IMG/VR virus record: IMGVR_UViG_3300002056_000074
Direction: 5' to 3' (one strand)
DNA: 64,000 nucleotides
Source of the DNA: a virus
The first letter of the stretch is position 1. Each line of letters opens with the position of its first letter. The position numbers were made by a program, and so were the translations under genes. Under the pieces are notes generated by a model, which saw only the letters and a program-made list of their open reading frames with translations, searched no databases and was not told the DNA's origin. Shown piece after piece: positions 29,776-36,993 of this stretch.

Positions 29776-31389
29776 TCACAATGTTTGATATCCATCCTTC
29801 CACCACTGAGGCATGATATCTTTATTTTGTGAATATAGGTATCCAAAAGATTCATCAAGTATATAGACTCTACCTTCATCATCATCAGCCCTGACAACTC
29901 GACCACCGCCCTGAATGATCTCAATGAGAGCTTGACGTTGATACCACTCAGGAGATAGTTCCATGCGCTTCTTGATCCATGCATCACCCATGTTTCCAAA
30001 AGGAACTTTACAGAAGATAGCAAATCGGCCAAGATCATACTTCAAATCAAGACCTTCTGTGCTTGATGGAGATATCAAAATAGCAGGTGTTGTTGATTCA
30101 TCCATAAATTCAGCGATTGCTTGATTTCGTGATACGCCTGATTCTGGGCCATGCTCAATAATTCTGTGACCTTTGCAGCTCAAATTGTCAACCAACCAAT
30201 CAGCGATTGCAAAATTTCCGGTATGAATAATACCATTTTCACCTTCATGCATTTCTGCCAAGGTCTCAATAGTTTTTAACATTTGAGTTTTTTGATTGTT
30301 ATCTCGCCACTTATAATTCATTTTCATTTGTGGCATATAAACTACCGGTCGATTATCAGGATCAAATTCAGATTCAATTGAGATATAAGCAGCCTCATTT
30401 GGATCAATACCTAAATCTGCGCACGTTGCTTCCTTGCCCAAAAACGTGGAAGACATAAAAAGAAATTGATCAGCCATTGGTTCAATAAGTCGCTTGAATG
30501 ATCTATGGGCACTGATTCGTTTGATTTGAATACCAAAATCGGAATCGATTAATACATAATCATCTATGACATCAGATATATCAATACGCAAAAATTCCTC
30601 ACAGATATTCAATTGACTTTCAACATGTTGAAGTTCACGCACCTTCTTTATTTCTTGGGCATTGTCAGATGGATTATGTTCTCTAGTTGATTCGATTTCG
30701 GTTAACAGAATATCATAGGCTTCTATTAGTGCTGGATTGTATACATCACGAATGAAATTAACAACAATTTCTAAATCACGTTGTTTAGGAAGTTCAATGT
30801 AATGATCAGAGCACCATTTCTTAGTAATATGAATCGAATCAAATCCACATAAAATAGAATCAAGTGAATGTGCCTCATCACAAGTCATTAAATTTCTTTT
30901 CAAGATGCGATCATCTTTTTTGAACATTGATGTATATGACCAAACAGATAATCCCAATGCATAGTTCATTACTGTGTTATTGGATTTCTTGGCTGTCTCT
31001 CTAGCATCTGCATAGGGGCATGATATACATCTTGGCTTTATGATAGAACCTGTTGCACAACTAACACCACCCTTGGATTGACATTTATAATGCGACTTAC
31101 CATAAAGTGATGATAGATTTATCTTCTTGTCTGATAAAAAATCATTTTCGTATTGTTTTTGGAGAATAGTCTGAGGTGTTAATATAAACGAGTTATTTCC
31201 CATATAACGAGAGAATGTCATAGACACAGCAGATTTTCCGCACCCAACGGGAGCTTCAACAAATAAGTATTTTTTGCGCTTATTCTTCTTCAAAAAATTC
31301 AACGCAATACATTGATTGATTCTGGGTTCATGTTGTCCTTCAAATGCCCAAAATTTTCTCATTTCTTTATCTAATTCAATATCAGACAT
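29776..31389 (-). CDS. DinG/Rad3-like SF2 helicase
   Basis: EAPVGCGKS, Cys cluster, CDEAH, MSST, SSTEGLD, KVPF, QGGGRVVR..DD.G.VYILD. Confidence 0.9.
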   Translation of the reverse strand: MSDIELDKEMRKFWAFEGQHEPRINQCIALNFLKKNKRKKYLFVEAPVGCGKSAVSMTFSRYMGNNSFILTPQTILQKQYENDFLSDKKINLSSLYGKSHYKCQSKGGVSCATGSIIKPRCISCPYADARETAKKSNNTVMNYALGLSVWSYTSMFKKDDRILKRNLMTCDEAHSLDSILCGFDSIHITKKWCSDHYIELPKQRDLEIVVNFIRDVYNPALIEAYDILLTEIESTREHNPSDNAQEIKKVRELQHVESQLNICEEFLRIDISDVIDDYVLIDSDFGIQIKRISAHRSFKRLIEPMADQFLFMSSTFLGKEATCADLGIDPNEAAYISIESEFDPDNRPVVYMPQMKMNYKWRDNNQKTQMLKTIETLAEMHEGENGIIHTGNFAIADWLVDNLSCKGHRIIEHGPESGVSRNQAIAEFMDESTTPAILISPSSTEGLDLKYDLGRFAIFCKVPFGNMGDAWIKKRMELSPEWYQRQALIEIIQGGGRVVRADDDEGRVYILDESFGYLYSQNKDIMPQWWKDGYQTL

Positions 31390-31417
31390 CTAAAAACTCC
31401 AACTAATTTGATATGTA

Positions 31418-31446
31418 ATTATACATGAAATAGAAAGATTGATCAA
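31418..31446 (-). promoter_or_regulatory. Sigma70-like promoter for the helicase
   Basis: TTGATC-17 nt-TATAAT on the minus strand; GGAG RBS. Confidence 0.6.
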
Positions 31447-31447
31447 T

Positions 31448-31496
31448 ACGGAACATGATATTAAAAACGGAACATGATATTAAAAACGGAACATGA
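31448..31496. repeat. 19-bp tandem repeat ACGGAACATGATATTAAAA x2.6
   Basis: Units start at 31448, 31467 and 31486. Confidence 0.9.
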
Positions 31497-31548
31497 CTTG
31501 CACCTGAAATTGTGATGTTGATGTTTCTTGTGAGTTTCACGAACAAGT

Positions 31549-31597
31549 ACATTGCTTTTATGAGTTGGACATATCAAACATTGCTTTTATGAGTTGG
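31549..31597. repeat. 20-bp direct repeat ACATTGCTTTTATGAGTTGG x2 with 9-nt spacer
   Basis: Copies at 31549-31568 and 31578-31597. Confidence 0.9.
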
Positions 31598-31669
31598 GCT
31601 GCGCTTGCAAATCTTTCAAAACGTCTAAAAATTGTATTTTTATAGTTTCTTTTGTAGTTTTAATAGTTT

Positions 31670-32040
31670 TGTCGCTACCTCCACCTCCGCGAAAATTTTT
31701 TATACACGCTACGCCGATCTGCATACCCGTCTTACGTGTTTTCATACCAACCTGAGTCTCCCGGTCTATACCCCACTTCGTAGCCACTTCGTGTCTCGGT
31801 ATCAATGCTTAGGTGTATCAATGTGTATAATTCTCTTCTATACTCAAGAACAACACGGAAACCTGCCAACAACTAGCCACGTATTGCTCAAAGCCCTCTG
31901 CCAGCTTTCGTGGGTGGGTTTCACTGCCTATTATCAGCCTCCGCAGCGGAGTTCAATTTTATGTCTGTTGGCTGAGGTATAATCGAACGTGACTTGATAT
32001 GGCATCACGCCTAACCCCAATTGATGTCGATTAAATCACA
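31670..32040 (-). ncRNA. Candidate structured non-coding RNA (unclassified)
   Basis: GC-rich island with no credible ORF and several nested complementary stems; strand inferred from flanking genes. Confidence 0.45.
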
Positions 32041-32054
32041 TAAAAATAATCATG

Positions 32055-32624
32055 TCAACACTTTTTTTCTATAATTTTCATATTTTCTACAAAATCGTTA
32101 ATGTCATGATCTTCACGACATACACAATCCTTGAGTTGTTCTATCCTCCACATAGCAATATGATAACTATCACAGAGGTCATATAAGCCCTTAGACTTGA
32201 GGTAGCCAGCAGCTAGGAACTGTTCGGCTATATCGTCTGGCACAGCCGCTAACATATCTTGTTTCTTTGCCTTGCCACTACCTGTAGCAAATTTTTTGAG
32301 TTGTGTGGGTGCAACTTTAACAATCCCATCAATACCATGTTTTTCTAATAGTTTGACTTCTAATGTGTATAAAAGACCACCCAGTAATCGTGTAGCATTT
32401 CCTATACTTCCAAAACTTAATGCCTCGCATACAATTTCATCACAACCATGTTGTTCAAATAACTCAATGATGCGGGTAGTCAATATAGACATTCTAACAA
32501 CTTCACTACCATCATGTTTTGATGTTTTAATACATTCAAAATGAATCATGGATGTATTTTCGACAATGACGATACCGGAACAAGTCATACTTTGGTCTAA
32601 ACATAATATTTTTTTTCTTCTCAT
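32055..32624 (-). CDS. RuvC-like Holliday junction resolvase
   Basis: ILCLDQSMTCSG, IVCEALSFG, VAPTQLKKFATGSGKAKKQDM, DLCDSYHIA; start moved to ATG 32624. Confidence 0.85.
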   Translation of the reverse strand: MRRKKILCLDQSMTCSGIVIVENTSMIHFECIKTSKHDGSEVVRMSILTTRIIELFEQHGCDEIVCEALSFGSIGNATRLLGGLLYTLEVKLLEKHGIDGIVKVAPTQLKKFATGSGKAKKQDMLAAVPDDIAEQFLAAGYLKSKGLYDLCDSYHIAMWRIEQLKDCVCREDHDINDFVENMKIIEKKC

Positions 32625-32655
32625 GTCTGTACTTATATGAGAAAAAAACAAGCAC

Positions 32656-32699
32656 GTTACACTAAGTAACACTAGTTTTTTAGTGTAACACTAGTGTTA
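32656..32699. promoter_or_regulatory. Palindromic operator-like cluster upstream of RuvC
   Basis: GTTACACTAA/TTAGTGTAAC inverted repeat plus palindrome TAACACTAGTGTTA. Confidence 0.45.
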
Positions 32700-34451
32700 A
32701 ATTTCTTCCAAGTCTTCAACCTCACCCACTATAGTAAAATCATCCACCATAGTAACGGTGATTGATCGAGTGAATTGACTTTTAATCTCAGCTTTATGTG
32801 AGATAACATAAAGACATATACCTTCTGCCATTCCTTTCTTTCTTACCATCTCGGTGGCTAGTAATGCACCTTCCTCATCCAATCCAGTATCTAATATCTC
32901 ATCGAGTAGACATATATTAATTTGTCCATACAAGTTCTGTAATAAATCTCTAAATGCAAATGACATAGCTAAATTGACTCGACTACGTTGCCCCGCTGAT
33001 AGATTACCAAAATCTAATGCCCTACCAAATTTACTAATGGTTGCTGTCATATCATGCTTAAATTCTATAATTTGTGTCAGACCGAGTTCATCTAGATAAT
33101 GATTTAATCTACCGTTTAAGAAAGGTATATTATTATTGATTAGACTTTTTCGCACAAAACTATCTTTTTTGGTCAACAACTTTAGAACCATGTCCTGATG
33201 TTTTAATAATGTATCAAGTTCATTTATTGATTCCATGTCAAAATCGGATATATCAACGGATAGGAGTTCATCCAATGTCTCACTATGTGGATTTTTACTT
33301 TGCATTAACGAATTTAGCTTGTCCTGATATCGTTCAATCCTAGAACTAATTTTGTATAGCGCCTCTACATTATTAACGGTGACTTCAGATTCCAATGTTG
33401 ATATTTTTTCATCAATGGTATTGATGAAAGACTCTAACTCATTAATTTGTCTATCTGCCTCTTGAATTGCTGTATTAGCAAGCTTTATAATTTTTTTTGT
33501 TGACGCAATACTTTTCTTAGCATCTGACATTGCTTGTTTGCAATAAGGACAGTTTCCATCTGACAAATGAACTAATTGATTTTCAGCCTCAGACTTTTTA
33601 GTGTTATTCTCTCGTAGAATAATTTTAAAATCTTTATATTGTGGTCTGAGTTCACGTAGCTCTTCTTTAAAGTTTTCTATCTCATCAAATATAGCAGCCT
33701 CGGCCTCAATATCTATTTCCGATAGAGTTTTTAGTTCATCTTGCAACTCAGAAATTGCTTCATCAGTATCAAGTTCCCATTGCTTTTTTCGTTTCTTAGT
33801 TGACTCCAATTGACTTTGATAACGCTCACGCTCATCTTCTAATGTAGTCAATTTTGTAGTTTGAAGTTCTTTGTTATGTTTAGTCTCTTTAATTTTTTCC
33901 TTTAATATATCTGCCTTTGTTGAAAGGGTTGTTAAGTCAAAAAGTTCTTCAATTATTGCTGTTTGACTAGCACCACTCTGCGCCTTAACCGGAAGATCCA
34001 AAAATGGTACACATGAAGCTGAAATAGCAGCAATTCGAATAAACAACTCATAGGGTATATTAATAATACTTTCAATCAACCTATTTCCATTGGCAATACT
34101 ATCCGGCGTAATATCCTTTCCATCTTTGGTGATGGTTACGTAATTATTGCCTTGGCCAGTTTTCATTTTTCTAGCCCGAAGAATTTCATATTCAATACCA
34201 CCACGTTCAAATGATAATGTAGTTACCATTTCCTTATTGTTGATATTATTAATTAAGTCATCCTTCCTTCCAATTCCATTCGATAATGGCTTATCATACA
34301 ATGTATATACCAATGCATTTATAATAGAAGTTTTTCCAACTCCATTATACCCATTAATTAATGTAGTTCCGGGTTGATCGAAATTAATGACAGTTGGAAT
34401 CGCACCAAAACCTAGAAAATTCTGTATTGTAAGCGTTTTAAACGTTATCAT
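32697..34451 (-). CDS. Recombination ATPase (gp46/SbcC/Rad50)
   Basis: GYNGVGKTS, CPYC hook, LSAGQ, LLDEILD, ISH. Confidence 0.95.
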   Translation of the reverse strand: MITFKTLTIQNFLGFGAIPTVINFDQPGTTLINGYNGVGKTSIINALVYTLYDKPLSNGIGRKDDLINNINNKEMVTTLSFERGGIEYEILRARKMKTGQGNNYVTITKDGKDITPDSIANGNRLIESIINIPYELFIRIAAISASCVPFLDLPVKAQSGASQTAIIEELFDLTTLSTKADILKEKIKETKHNKELQTTKLTTLEDERERYQSQLESTKKRKKQWELDTDEAISELQDELKTLSEIDIEAEAAIFDEIENFKEELRELRPQYKDFKIILRENNTKKSEAENQLVHLSDGNCPYCKQAMSDAKKSIASTKKIIKLANTAIQEADRQINELESFINTIDEKISTLESEVTVNNVEALYKISSRIERYQDKLNSLMQSKNPHSETLDELLSVDISDFDMESINELDTLLKHQDMVLKLLTKKDSFVRKSLINNNIPFLNGRLNHYLDELGLTQIIEFKHDMTATISKFGRALDFGNLSAGQRSRVNLAMSFAFRDLLQNLYGQINICLLDEILDTGLDEEGALLATEMVRKKGMAEGICLYVISHKAEIKSQFTRSITVTMVDDFTIVGEVEDLEEI

Positions 34452-35528
34452 TTAAGATACCAAATCATTGTATATGGAAACCAACATATCATTGTTAATA
34501 TGTTCACTATCAATTTTTTTGAACATATCAACTACTAAATTATCAACTGTATCAATATCTTCCGTTGATTTTTGTAATGGCGCTGTGGTAATTATTTCAT
34601 TTACTTCTGCTGATTCTCGTAGTTCAAATCTTCGTGGATTGTAAGTCGTCATTACATGGCGCTGCATATCAGCACTATCTTCATAATTCAACGGGATGTC
34701 AGCTACACATTTAACGTATGTCCTATCATCAATTTCAACTTCACCGTCAATAATGTCTGATATTGTGGTGTATATATACTTCGGCCCATCTTCCCAGTTA
34801 AAGAAGAAGAGTTCTTTTGTTGTAAAATCATAAGTAGCGTAACCACGATCAACATCCCCTTCATCTCCAAAACTGGTGGGAAATGGGTTTCCCATGTAGA
34901 CAATATTTTTATTCTTTCTTGTTTGGCGCTTATGAAAATGACCAGATACAATCAATTCTGGCTGTTGAAATAAATCGGGATCAGCACCACCAATCATTTC
35001 GGTGCCATGACCAGTGACAATATATCCATTGAATTCGAAATGACCAAACCAGACGGGCACTGAATTATATTGCACTAAATCGGCATATTCGTGATGCATA
35101 AGAAATGGACAGAATAGAACATTCTGTCCCCCTTTATATGAATTTTTCAACACTTCAGGATTTTCAATCAAGTGAACATTTTCAAATTGTTCAACCCAAT
35201 GAAGTGAGTGAATTTCCCTAGAGTTTCTTTTATATAAATCATGGTTGCCTAATATGACATATATGGGGAGTCCCAAATCGTTTAATTTTTTGAAGCCAAT
35301 ATATGCGTATCGCAATGTCTCTAAATTAATAGATGTTCTATTTTGGTTCCAATCACCCAAGAATCCAATTGAATCAATTTCGGGATCAGCCTTGACTTCC
35401 TTGATAAAAAAATCTATAAAATTATCACAGAAAGTATTGTGTATAATACTCTCTTCTTTTTTTGCATCCGCACAACCATAATGTATGTCTGTGAAGAATG
35501 CCATTTTTTTAGATTTGAATTTGGTCAT
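34452..35528 (-). CDS. Recombination nuclease (gp47/SbcD/Mre11)
   Basis: FTDIHYG, LGD, GNHD, GHFE, SGHFH, YMGNP; TGaTATAAT upstream. Confidence 0.95.
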   Translation of the reverse strand: MTKFKSKKMAFFTDIHYGCADAKKEESIIHNTFCDNFIDFFIKEVKADPEIDSIGFLGDWNQNRTSINLETLRYAYIGFKKLNDLGLPIYVILGNHDLYKRNSREIHSLHWVEQFENVHLIENPEVLKNSYKGGQNVLFCPFLMHHEYADLVQYNSVPVWFGHFEFNGYIVTGHGTEMIGGADPDLFQQPELIVSGHFHKRQTRKNKNIVYMGNPFPTSFGDEGDVDRGYATYDFTTKELFFFNWEDGPKYIYTTISDIIDGEVEIDDRTYVKCVADIPLNYEDSADMQRHVMTTYNPRRFELRESAEVNEIITTAPLQKSTEDIDTVDNLVVDMFKKIDSEHINNDMLVSIYNDLVS

Positions 35529-35561: not shown

Positions 35562-36185
35562 TCAATCAACTTCATTTTCGTTTATATGAACAACATCATC
35601 AGAATTTTTTTCTTTAATTTCTTCTGCTAAATTTGCTGCATATTCTTCCTGATACGCATAAGACGGTAATCTACCATTTTTAATGGTTATCTCATCTTTA
35701 ATATTTCTTTGACGCTTTTCCTGTTTAATAAATTGCACCATACTCCGAGAGATGCAAGTTGTGTAATAACTGAAGGGATTATCACTTTTTTCTGGATCAA
35801 AACGAATCCACGTACTCATTAAAGTGGTTAATGCATAACTTCGCATATCATCAATGTAAGTATAGCCACTAAAATTACTCTTTTGGCTAATGCGTTGTGT
35901 TAATAATAATAACATGTGTGCCAATTTATCTGACATTTTTCCCTGTTCTTTACTAAGCCTAAATTCCTTAAGCAACTCCTTATTCGACAGGTAATTAACA
36001 CGTTTTCTACGTTTCCCCTCCATCTCAGCCTCTTTTTCAGCAGTCAGTGGTTGCTGTTTAACAATTTCAATATCACTATATGGTCCCTCAGTCATCTTGG
36101 TGCTCAACAATTCTTTAGTCTCTGCATCATATTTGTGATATCTTGATAATGGTTTATCTAACCATTGAATTCGATTCTTCGCCAT
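35562..36185 (-). CDS. Late-transcription sigma factor (gp55-like)
   Basis: NYLSNKELL, NFSGYTYIDDM, FDPEKSDNPFSYYT, EKRQRNIKD. Confidence 0.9.
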   Translation of the reverse strand: MAKNRIQWLDKPLSRYHKYDAETKELLSTKMTEGPYSDIEIVKQQPLTAEKEAEMEGKRRKRVNYLSNKELLKEFRLSKEQGKMSDKLAHMLLLLTQRISQKSNFSGYTYIDDMRSYALTTLMSTWIRFDPEKSDNPFSYYTTCISRSMVQFIKQEKRQRNIKDEITIKNGRLPSYAYQEEYAANLAEEIKEKNSDDVVHINENEVD

Positions 36186-36294
36186 ATTAATATCCTCCGT
36201 TAATTAATTATATATTAATTATTAAAAAGTTGCAATTTTTTTTTAATTACAAAGAAAATAAATAGAATGAAGTCTCTGATTCTTTTAGGTAAAC

Positions 36295-36993
36295 ATGTCA
36301 ACCAATTTCAAGGTACGCTTAAATGCTGCCAATATCACAAACGTACAAGAACGTCGATTTCAAACAGTTTCGTTTGATGTATCACCTGATCTCAATGAAC
36401 AGAGAACCGTTACCTACGATTCTGTAGATCCTACTCACGCACCCGGACAGTTTATGATTTATAAAAAAACTGCTGCCCGTCGATTTCAATTAACTCAAGT
36501 ACGATTAATATCTAGAACTCGAAGAGAGGCATCTTTAAATCTTGCTATTCTATGGATATTAAGAGGTTGGACTATGCCAAATTTTGGCACTGAGACAGGA
36601 GGGGCACGAAATAATCCAGATATTAAAAAAGATAACTCTCCCTATAATAGTGATAAATTACGACAAATAATTGATTCGGTAAATGGTCGAAATAGAGCGA
36701 AGAGTTTTTTGGGTGCTCCACCAGCCGTATTAGAGCTTTCGGCATATTCAAGATTTGGTGCAAATGACGGTATTCATAGCTTAGGTCATATCAGAAGGGT
36801 TCCGGTTGTTATTGAATCATTGGGAATATTCTACCCATCAGATGTTGATTACGTACCAACAGAGGATGAATTTCCTACTCCAATGCCAACAGTAATGAAT
36901 ATTGATATTTCATTAACAGAGGCCCAATCACCATTAGATATGGCTAGATTTAGTTTGGACCAATATAGACGTGGTGAATTAACAGGATATTAA
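36295..36993 (+). CDS. Baseplate/tube-initiator protein
   Basis: LGAPPAVLELSAY, VPVVIESL..YPSDVDY, PTVMNIDISLTE; TAAATA at 36259-36264. Confidence 0.6.
   Translation: MSTNFKVRLNAANITNVQERRFQTVSFDVSPDLNEQRTVTYDSVDPTHAPGQFMIYKKTAARRFQLTQVRLISRTRREASLNLAILWILRGWTMPNFGTETGGARNNPDIKKDNSPYNSDKLRQIIDSVNGRNRAKSFLGAPPAVLELSAYSRFGANDGIHSLGHIRRVPVVIESLGIFYPSDVDYVPTEDEFPTPMPTVMNIDISLTEAQSPLDMARFSLDQYRRGELTGY

Follow-up and report, generated by a model that had tools for sequence, protein, structure and literature searches.

What fills a 665-nt space that separates a RuvC-type resolvase gene from a DinG-type helicase gene in the genome of an uncultured jumbo phage? The question is raised by IMG/VR record IMGVR_UViG_3300002056_000074, of which a 64,000-nt stretch of DNA, here called the window, was analysed. 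An original prediction had placed an unclassified phage RNA in this gap, and that is still the best reading: on balance, the minus strand of the gap probably encodes, in its GC-rich two-thirds, a structured non-coding RNA peculiar to the lineage. The grounds for it differ from those first given, however, in that the helices listed at the outset are at chance level and no family model matches, whereas relatives of the phage carry co-varying RNAs and the window lies among them in a tree of DinG proteins. The main support for an RNA is comparative, and consists in the occupation of the corresponding slot by co-varying RNAs in those relatives.

The RuvC-DinG gap and its neighbourhood

The gap runs from 31390 to 32054 and is the largest space in the window between ORFs of at least 120 aa, the runner-up measuring 496 nt; it had rightly been called the largest non-coding gap. 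The description of the stretch as markedly GC-rich also holds, with a G+C content of 0.474 for 31670-32030 against a window mean of 0.351, a value that falls at the 99.3rd percentile among 360-nt windows. The genes that define the locus are as follows:

34452-35528, minus strand: gp47-like phosphoesterase gene (ORF with Pfam/PHROG assignment)
32697-34451, minus strand: gp46/SbcC-like ATPase gene (ORF with Pfam/PHROG assignment)
32055-32672, minus strand: RuvC-like resolvase gene, upstream of the gap (Pfam RuvC and PHROG 159)
29776-31389, minus strand: DinG/XPD-type helicase gene, downstream of the gap (Pfam Helicase_C_2, DEAD_2 and ResIII)

The order gp47, gp46, RuvC, gap and DinG, all on the minus strand, had been correctly recognized, as ORFs, Pfam and PHROG assignments agree. 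The best matches of the helicase are in Xanthomonas phages XacN1 and Xoo-sp13 and Stenotrophomonas phages RAS14 and CM1 (44% identity to the XacN1 helicase), and its closeness to these phages identifies the window as part of an uncultured XacN1-like jumbo phage. Elsewhere in the window, 4.5 kb from the flagged GC-rich stretch, the minima of the cumulative G-C and A-T skews coincide with a divergent gene junction (36185-36295).

Signals along the gap

Read along the minus strand, the gap presents a series of predicted signals, together with one open frame that competes with them:

32030-32058, minus strand: P1, a promoter-like site with TTGACA, a 17-nt spacer and a TG-extended TGnTTTAAT (pattern search and sequence)
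31672-32023, minus strand: GC-rich body of about 350 nt, the candidate non-coding RNA, within which all helices of the original prediction lie (composition)
31587-31805, minus strand: ORF72, the rival open frame of 72 codons, 52 of them from the first ATG at 31745 (ORF list)
31674-31703, minus strand: A/U run (31692-31703) and then the purine-rich CGCGGAGGUGGAGGUAGC (31691-31674), the presumed 3′ end of the RNA (sequence)
31643-31669, unstranded: three TAGTTT boxes, which read AAACTA on the minus strand, within an A-rich tract just past the purine tract (sequence)
31549-31597, unstranded: perfect 20-nt direct repeat in two copies, 29 nt from start to start (repeat search)
31445-31501, unstranded: 19-nt tandem repeat in three copies, operator- or iteron-like, immediately next to the −35 box for dinG (repeat search)
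31418-31446, minus strand: dinG promoter-like site with TTGATC, a 17-nt spacer and TATAAT (promoter search)

The −35 box of P1 overlaps the RuvC stop codon, and the start that it predicts lies near 32023. P1 is the sole match to TTGACA-N16-18-TWTAAT in 64 kb, and because 0.46 such matches would be expected by chance, it is not significant when taken alone. In the arrangement that we propose, the RNA would be transcribed from this σ70-type promoter of its own, from about 32023 down to 31672, and would end near the A-run and the purine-rich tract; the short direct repeats would come next, followed by a separate promoter for dinG. The assignment of the body to the minus strand is drawn from the relatives and from P1. 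A search of the gap region for intrinsic terminators on this strand found none. As for the purine tract, its candidate pairing partners are only 5-6 bp long (UACCUC with GAGGUA, CUCCGC and CCACC), and they go unused in the minus-strand minimum-energy fold.

The 20-nt repeat is absent elsewhere in the window, with 0.01 occurrences expected by chance, and near-identical metagenome copies show indel differences at it. The dinG promoter-like site ends 28 nt ahead of the helicase ATG. ORF72 overlaps the 3′ end of the candidate RNA, the purine tract and the TAGTTT boxes.

Folding and known-RNA tests

The arms of the proposed helices were readily located: AATCGA at 31981 with TCGATT at 32027, CGTGA at 31988 with TCACG at 32005, TCAGCC at 31934 with GGCTGA at 31970, CTCCGCaGCGGAG at 31939-31951, GAAACC at 31858 with GGTTTC at 31917, and ACACG with CGTGT. 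The nested pairings therefore stand insofar as every arm is where it was said to be, but they do no better than chance when fold energies are set against dinucleotide shuffles. The short direct repeats CCACTTCGT and GTATCAATG, each claimed in two copies, were both found in the sequence.

For the whole stretch, comparison with dinucleotide shuffles gave z = -0.40 on the plus strand and z = +1.10 and +0.83 on the minus strand, none of them significant. Five sub-domains containing the listed helices were no more remarkable, ranging from -0.87 to +1.05 on the minus strand and from -1.92 to +0.06 on the plus strand, again with no significant value. Of course, this kind of test is a weak one, since the clearly conserved gap of family B, described below, fails it as well (z = +0.5).

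Known RNA families do not account for the stretch. The Rfam search that had been suggested yielded no covariance-model match over the whole window at the gathering threshold, and a search of the gap against Rfam 15 at E values up to 10 returned only three chance-level matches, all of them beyond the GC-rich part or on its margin. Among the Rfam 15 families tested, tRNA, tmRNA, RNase P, group I and II introns, GOLLD, ROOL and riboswitches were none of them reached. ARAGORN agreed with the earlier statement that the stretch holds no tRNA or tmRNA. At the nucleotide level, searches with the gap found no meaningful similarity in INPHARED phages, in related loci or in five whole viral records; comparison with every related gap, including that of the closest accessible relative (L018/L069), likewise showed no nucleotide similarity.

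Structured RNAs in the same slot of relatives

Relatives of the window have a gap of 650-820 nt that immediately precedes a co-oriented gene for the DinG-type helicase. It is 684-820 nt long and unannotated in XacN1, Xoo-sp13 and RAS14, and a like gap precedes the helicase gene in contigs L001 and L003 and in many of 49 IMG/VR loci that were recovered with the helicase alignment. At least four families (A-D), which cannot be aligned with one another, can be told apart among these gaps; B, C and D are made up of IMG/VR and metagenome contigs. Examination of the syntenic gaps for covariation, a course that had been proposed at the outset, revealed a co-varying RNA in each relative lineage represented by at least two sequences.

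Family A comprises XacN1, Xoo-sp13 and RAS14, and CM1 matches it too. Between XacN1 and Xoo-sp13, identity reaches 83% in its core, against 69% for the flanking genes, and 22 of the 86 pairs in its consensus fold show compensatory double changes. A long-range closing helix joins a C-run to a G-run about 450 nt away, and the minimum free energy of the XacN1 copy has a z of -3.1. The order in this family is promoter, RNA, second promoter and helicase gene, and a TTGACt-17-TATAaT site stands in the same place as the dinG promoter of the window. The XacN1 genome paper mentions neither an RNA nor an origin at this locus, nor even the helicase (PMC5852040). In the XacN1 annotation, “predicted ORF313” (L002:5784-5945; record 189691-189852) lies opposite to the helicase strand and covers the promoter of the helicase gene as well as the 3′ part of the co-varying family A RNA; this ORF is probably an annotation error.

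Family B (L001/L017, L003 and L059) is about 79% identical over the whole gap when L001 and L003 are compared, and indels break every reading frame. L021 and L023 have one hairpin in common with this family. In families B and D, the RNA is closely preceded by an ORF of about 81 aa with a CxxC...CxxC zinc ribbon, FmdB-like by eye (L001:3264-3509; also in L003, L019-L023, L020 and L058), with third-position variation; the window has RuvC in its place.

In family C, which numbers 15 distinct IMG/VR loci, a promoter-like site stands at the head, an H-type pseudoknot is present, and the 3′ end carries a G-tract, with direct repeats beyond it. All 15 pairs of its middle domain are compensatory, and 92% of cells are paired against 32-43% with slid partners, in an alignment that was fitted to the model and so favours structure. 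The pseudoknot (for example in L048:2220-2260, L041, L030 and L029) is conserved and is formed by pairing of 4-5 hairpin-loop bases with the bases just before an invariant GGUUUGG, and nearly every member shows compensatory changes in it. In L050 and L054, GACTAT/AACTAT boxes occur past the G-tract with a spacing like that of the TAGTTT boxes in the window. Loci of this family also have U-tailed hairpins between the RNA and the helicase promoter, which suggests a separate transcription unit and not a leader of the helicase mRNA.

Family D (L020, L022, L049 and L058) has compensatory changes in 16 of 52 pairs; the proportion of paired cells is 95%, whereas controls with slid partners reach 32-47%. 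Its RNAs have a G+C content of 0.43-0.46 in loci of 0.35-0.39.

Several traits run through these families. A G-run is found at the 3′ end of the RNA in A, C and D, its pairing partner in A and D being a C-run that lies upstream. The RNAs of all four families lie on the helicase strand, as fixed by their G-U pairs. None of the four has a match in Rfam, and a full-text literature search found no description of RNAs upstream of DinG.

Position of the window among its relatives

The gap of the window lies directly upstream of a DinG-type helicase gene in a phage of the XacN1-like clade, the very slot that these RNAs occupy. In the DinG tree, the window and L018 together are sister to family B, and the clade that encloses them also holds L021/L023 and family D; most of the remainder consists of families C and A, while distant outgroups that have no gap (RsoM2USA and L060-L062) fall outside. 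Since the window is nested among RNA-bearing lineages and the gap-less outgroups lie beyond them, the RNA slot looks ancestral to the clade.

The layout points the same way. On the minus strand, the window shows P1, the GC-rich body, the A-run and purine tract, the TAGTTT boxes, two 20-mers, three 19-mers and the dinG promoter, and in families A and C a promoter-like site stands at the position of P1. Like the RNAs upstream of DinG in families A-D, the candidate of the window has its slot, its DinG clade, a promoter-like site at its head, G+C enrichment and no Rfam match, and also a 3′ purine or G tract, beyond which come direct repeats and then a distinct promoter for the helicase gene. It differs from A-D in having no sequence or structure similarity that could be detected by nhmmer or three covariance models, and from A, B and D in its upstream neighbour, which is RuvC and not one of the other genes. 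For the window, the argument is built on slot, layout and tree, and helix covariation is known from families A-D.

The model searches covered each family. With nhmmer, the family A and C profiles found no match in the window gap, and neither did covariance models R1 (family D, full length), R2 (family C, middle domain) and R3 (family B, 5′ domain). These three models do not detect one another’s families either, so their negative outcome excludes the window from A-D as defined and not from deeper common descent. Scanning a family A 16-mer against IMG/VR returned chance matches only (L007-L016), and the window shows nothing that corresponds to the family C helix, in which the RGG ahead of UUUGG pairs with a CCY further downstream. 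Motif likenesses to families B, C and D can be picked out by eye (GCUACGAAGU; AGGUUGG; CGAAAGCU...UUGAG...GGCUAG; an A-run and then a G-tract), and because they were noticed after the fact they have not been counted towards homology.

The closest accessible relative, L018/L069, is 61% identical to the window in DinG and 50% in RuvC. DinG searches of viral, metagenome and genome contigs and a RuvC search of viral contigs produced nothing closer than this 61%, and DinG relatives at 57-71% identity are present in a large protein collection. All known copies of the window’s own gap sequence are near-identical. Considering the slot, the tree and the layout together, the candidate RNA of the window would be the positional counterpart, and probably a diverged descendant, of the RNAs upstream of DinG in XacN1-like phages.

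Some details of the L069 gap may be recorded here. A TTAGACAAATAATAGACA-type repeat, present in four to five copies, opens this gap (L069:9980-10145), which further on carries the family-B-like motifs UAUAAAUGCG...CGUUAAAG and CUGGGGAG, and is separated from the helicase gene by a 136-aa ORF. A 13-nt exact match links the plus strand of the window (31774-31786) to the helicase-sense strand of L069 (10652-10664; BLAST E = 0.23); in L069 it forms a hairpin with a UUCG loop, and its orientation is opposite to what homology would lead one to expect.

Alternative explanations

The first alternative, which we consider unlikely, is that nothing more than common regulatory or intercistronic DNA fills the gap, with promoters and repeat operators for dinG and a GC-rich part that is either neutral or the decayed relic of an ancestral RNA or gene, and whose structure would serve no function today. 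Fold energies that equal those of shuffles and the failure of every family model to match the window gap would suit such a view, and the repeats and the two promoter-like sites are of the sort that regulatory DNA usually contains. Against it, some 350 nt at the 99th percentile of G+C would be unexpected of neutral sequence in a phage with 35% G+C, all relatives that could be tested have kept a functional RNA in the slot, and no relic of the neighbouring genes was found.

Another means of explaining the gap would be translation of a small protein from the minus-strand frame at 31587-31805, a possibility that we regard as improbable. The frame of ORF72 is open on the gene-sense strand, gene callers have picked it out on four contigs, it resembles RuvC in codon score (0.14 against 0.11), and one variant loses three residues with the frame kept. 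Against this, a word-index search of 5.8 billion proteins recovered near-identical copies only, on four metagenome contigs, and HMMER, run in full over 1.8 billion representatives, added nothing beyond two giant repetitive proteins that match its Lys/Thr-rich stretch. The C-termini of the near-identical copies differ, the Shine-Dalgarno sequence is weak, and the ORF leaves all but the 3′ third of the GC-rich stretch uncovered. As 23% of demonstrably spurious ORFs equal or beat its codon score, that score neither supports nor excludes translation.

The original prediction had itself singled out this frame and a second one, 31632-31982 on the plus strand, as possible conserved proteins, and neither proved to be one: the former has only near-identical copies and low-complexity matches, the latter no homologue at all. 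Neither matches Pfam or PHROGs. The plus-strand frame (ORF116) has a poor codon score of -0.30 in addition to its want of homologues and was rejected as a gene. A decayed copy of the genes that flank the gap in relatives was likewise considered and rejected, there being no tblastn match to the FmdB-like ORF, ORF136, ORF224 or XacN1 ORF314.

It is also conceivable, although doubtful, that the function of the locus resides in the DNA itself, with the repeats and the A-rich tract serving as a replication origin or protein-binding site and any transcript being incidental. The three 19-nt copies, the two 20-nt copies and the three TAGTTT boxes in an A/T-rich tract beside replication and recombination genes would make an inviting arrangement of this kind, and the L069 gap carries TAGACA-type repeats. 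On the other hand, the repeats lie outside the flagged GC-rich stretch, the cumulative GC-skew minimum is found at about 36-37 kb and so away from the gap, and what the relatives conserve is covariation of the RNA type, with G-U pairs, on one strand.

Lastly, an RNA from the plus strand, antisense to the RuvC-DinG unit and running from about 31670 to a hairpin with a U-tail at 31939-31961, is very improbable: the region’s only terminator-like site is on that strand, a weak TTGTAT-17-TAGTTT site lies ahead of 31670, the 3′-most sub-domain folds slightly better there (z = -1.9) and the 13 nt that recur exactly on the sense strand in the L069 gap (E = 0.23) sit there too, but all four families of relatives use the helicase strand, as fixed by G-U pairs, the minus strand has a much better promoter match, and the terminator count is at chance (1 against 0.8 expected).

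Possible roles and comparison with known systems

If the minus-strand RNA is real, several roles can be envisaged for it. One possibility is that it would act at a replication start site, as a pre-primer or by forming an R-loop, an option suggested by the purine tract, the A-rich tract and the repeats downstream and by the adjoining gene for a helicase capable of acting on R-loops. Equally, it might act in trans, as a partner or regulator of the helicase and recombination module. Regulation of dinG in cis seems a less likely role, and the same may be said of some other role altogether.

Known RNA-primed or R-loop origins include that of ColE1, with its RNA II pre-primer, and T4 oriF (uvsY) and oriG. 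The DinG protein of E. coli belongs to a helicase family known to unwind R-loops. By analogy with these systems, the gap and its counterparts in XacN1-like jumbo phages might form an RNA-primed replication start of the ColE1/T4-origin kind beside its own helicase gene, although as a complete scheme this is improbable. The P1 transcript would fold into a lineage-specific pre-primer; its purine- or G-rich 3′ tract would form a persistent R-loop over the adjoining A-rich repeat DNA and prime synthesis; and the adjoining DinG-type helicase would set or reset firing. The likeness to the ColE1 and T4 origins lies in a promoter, a potentially structured RNA of a few hundred nt, a G or purine tract, and an A/T-rich tract with repeats, all of which are predicted signals in the window, and in a helicase of the R-loop (DinG) type that the window encodes next door. 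The differences are that no skew switch occurs at the gap, that the G-run of the relatives in families A and D is base-paired inside the RNA and not free, and that ColE1 RNA II has no homology to the gap. An origin placed by GC skew was considered separately and rejected: the cumulative minimum falls at about 36-37 kb, at a flip in gene orientation, and the skew runs straight through the gap.

A second comparison is offered by GOLLD and ROOL, large ornate RNAs of phages and prophages whose structures have been studied by cryo-EM (PMC12286853). The RNAs considered here, among them the candidate of the window, resemble them in being large (300-600 nt), phage-borne and intricately folded, and in having come to light through comparative genomics as GC-rich, gene-free stretches. 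They differ in that neither the window nor families A-D have a match in Rfam. GOLLD and ROOL usually occur near tRNA genes and not beside a helicase gene.

Should the RNA of the window be real, it would join a clade-wide set of large, pseudoknotted and fast-diverging RNAs that have stayed beside a DinG-type helicase gene while their sequences drifted past mutual recognition. Such a set would constitute a new class among the few large orphan RNAs of phages, and it could bear on how giant phages start and control DNA replication and recombination. As the cultured phages XacN1, Xoo-sp13 and RAS14 carry an RNA of this set, its transcription, structure, R-loops and link to the helicase can be tested at the bench.

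The helicases that accompany these RNAs have four invariant Cys residues in their family alignment. Several members of the clade are 830-880 aa long and contain intein or homing-endonuclease domains (PF05203, PF05204 and PF14528) in the N-terminal Walker-A region, examples being L018:1328-3976, L053:1475-3958 and proteins P0011, P0021, P0046 and P0106.
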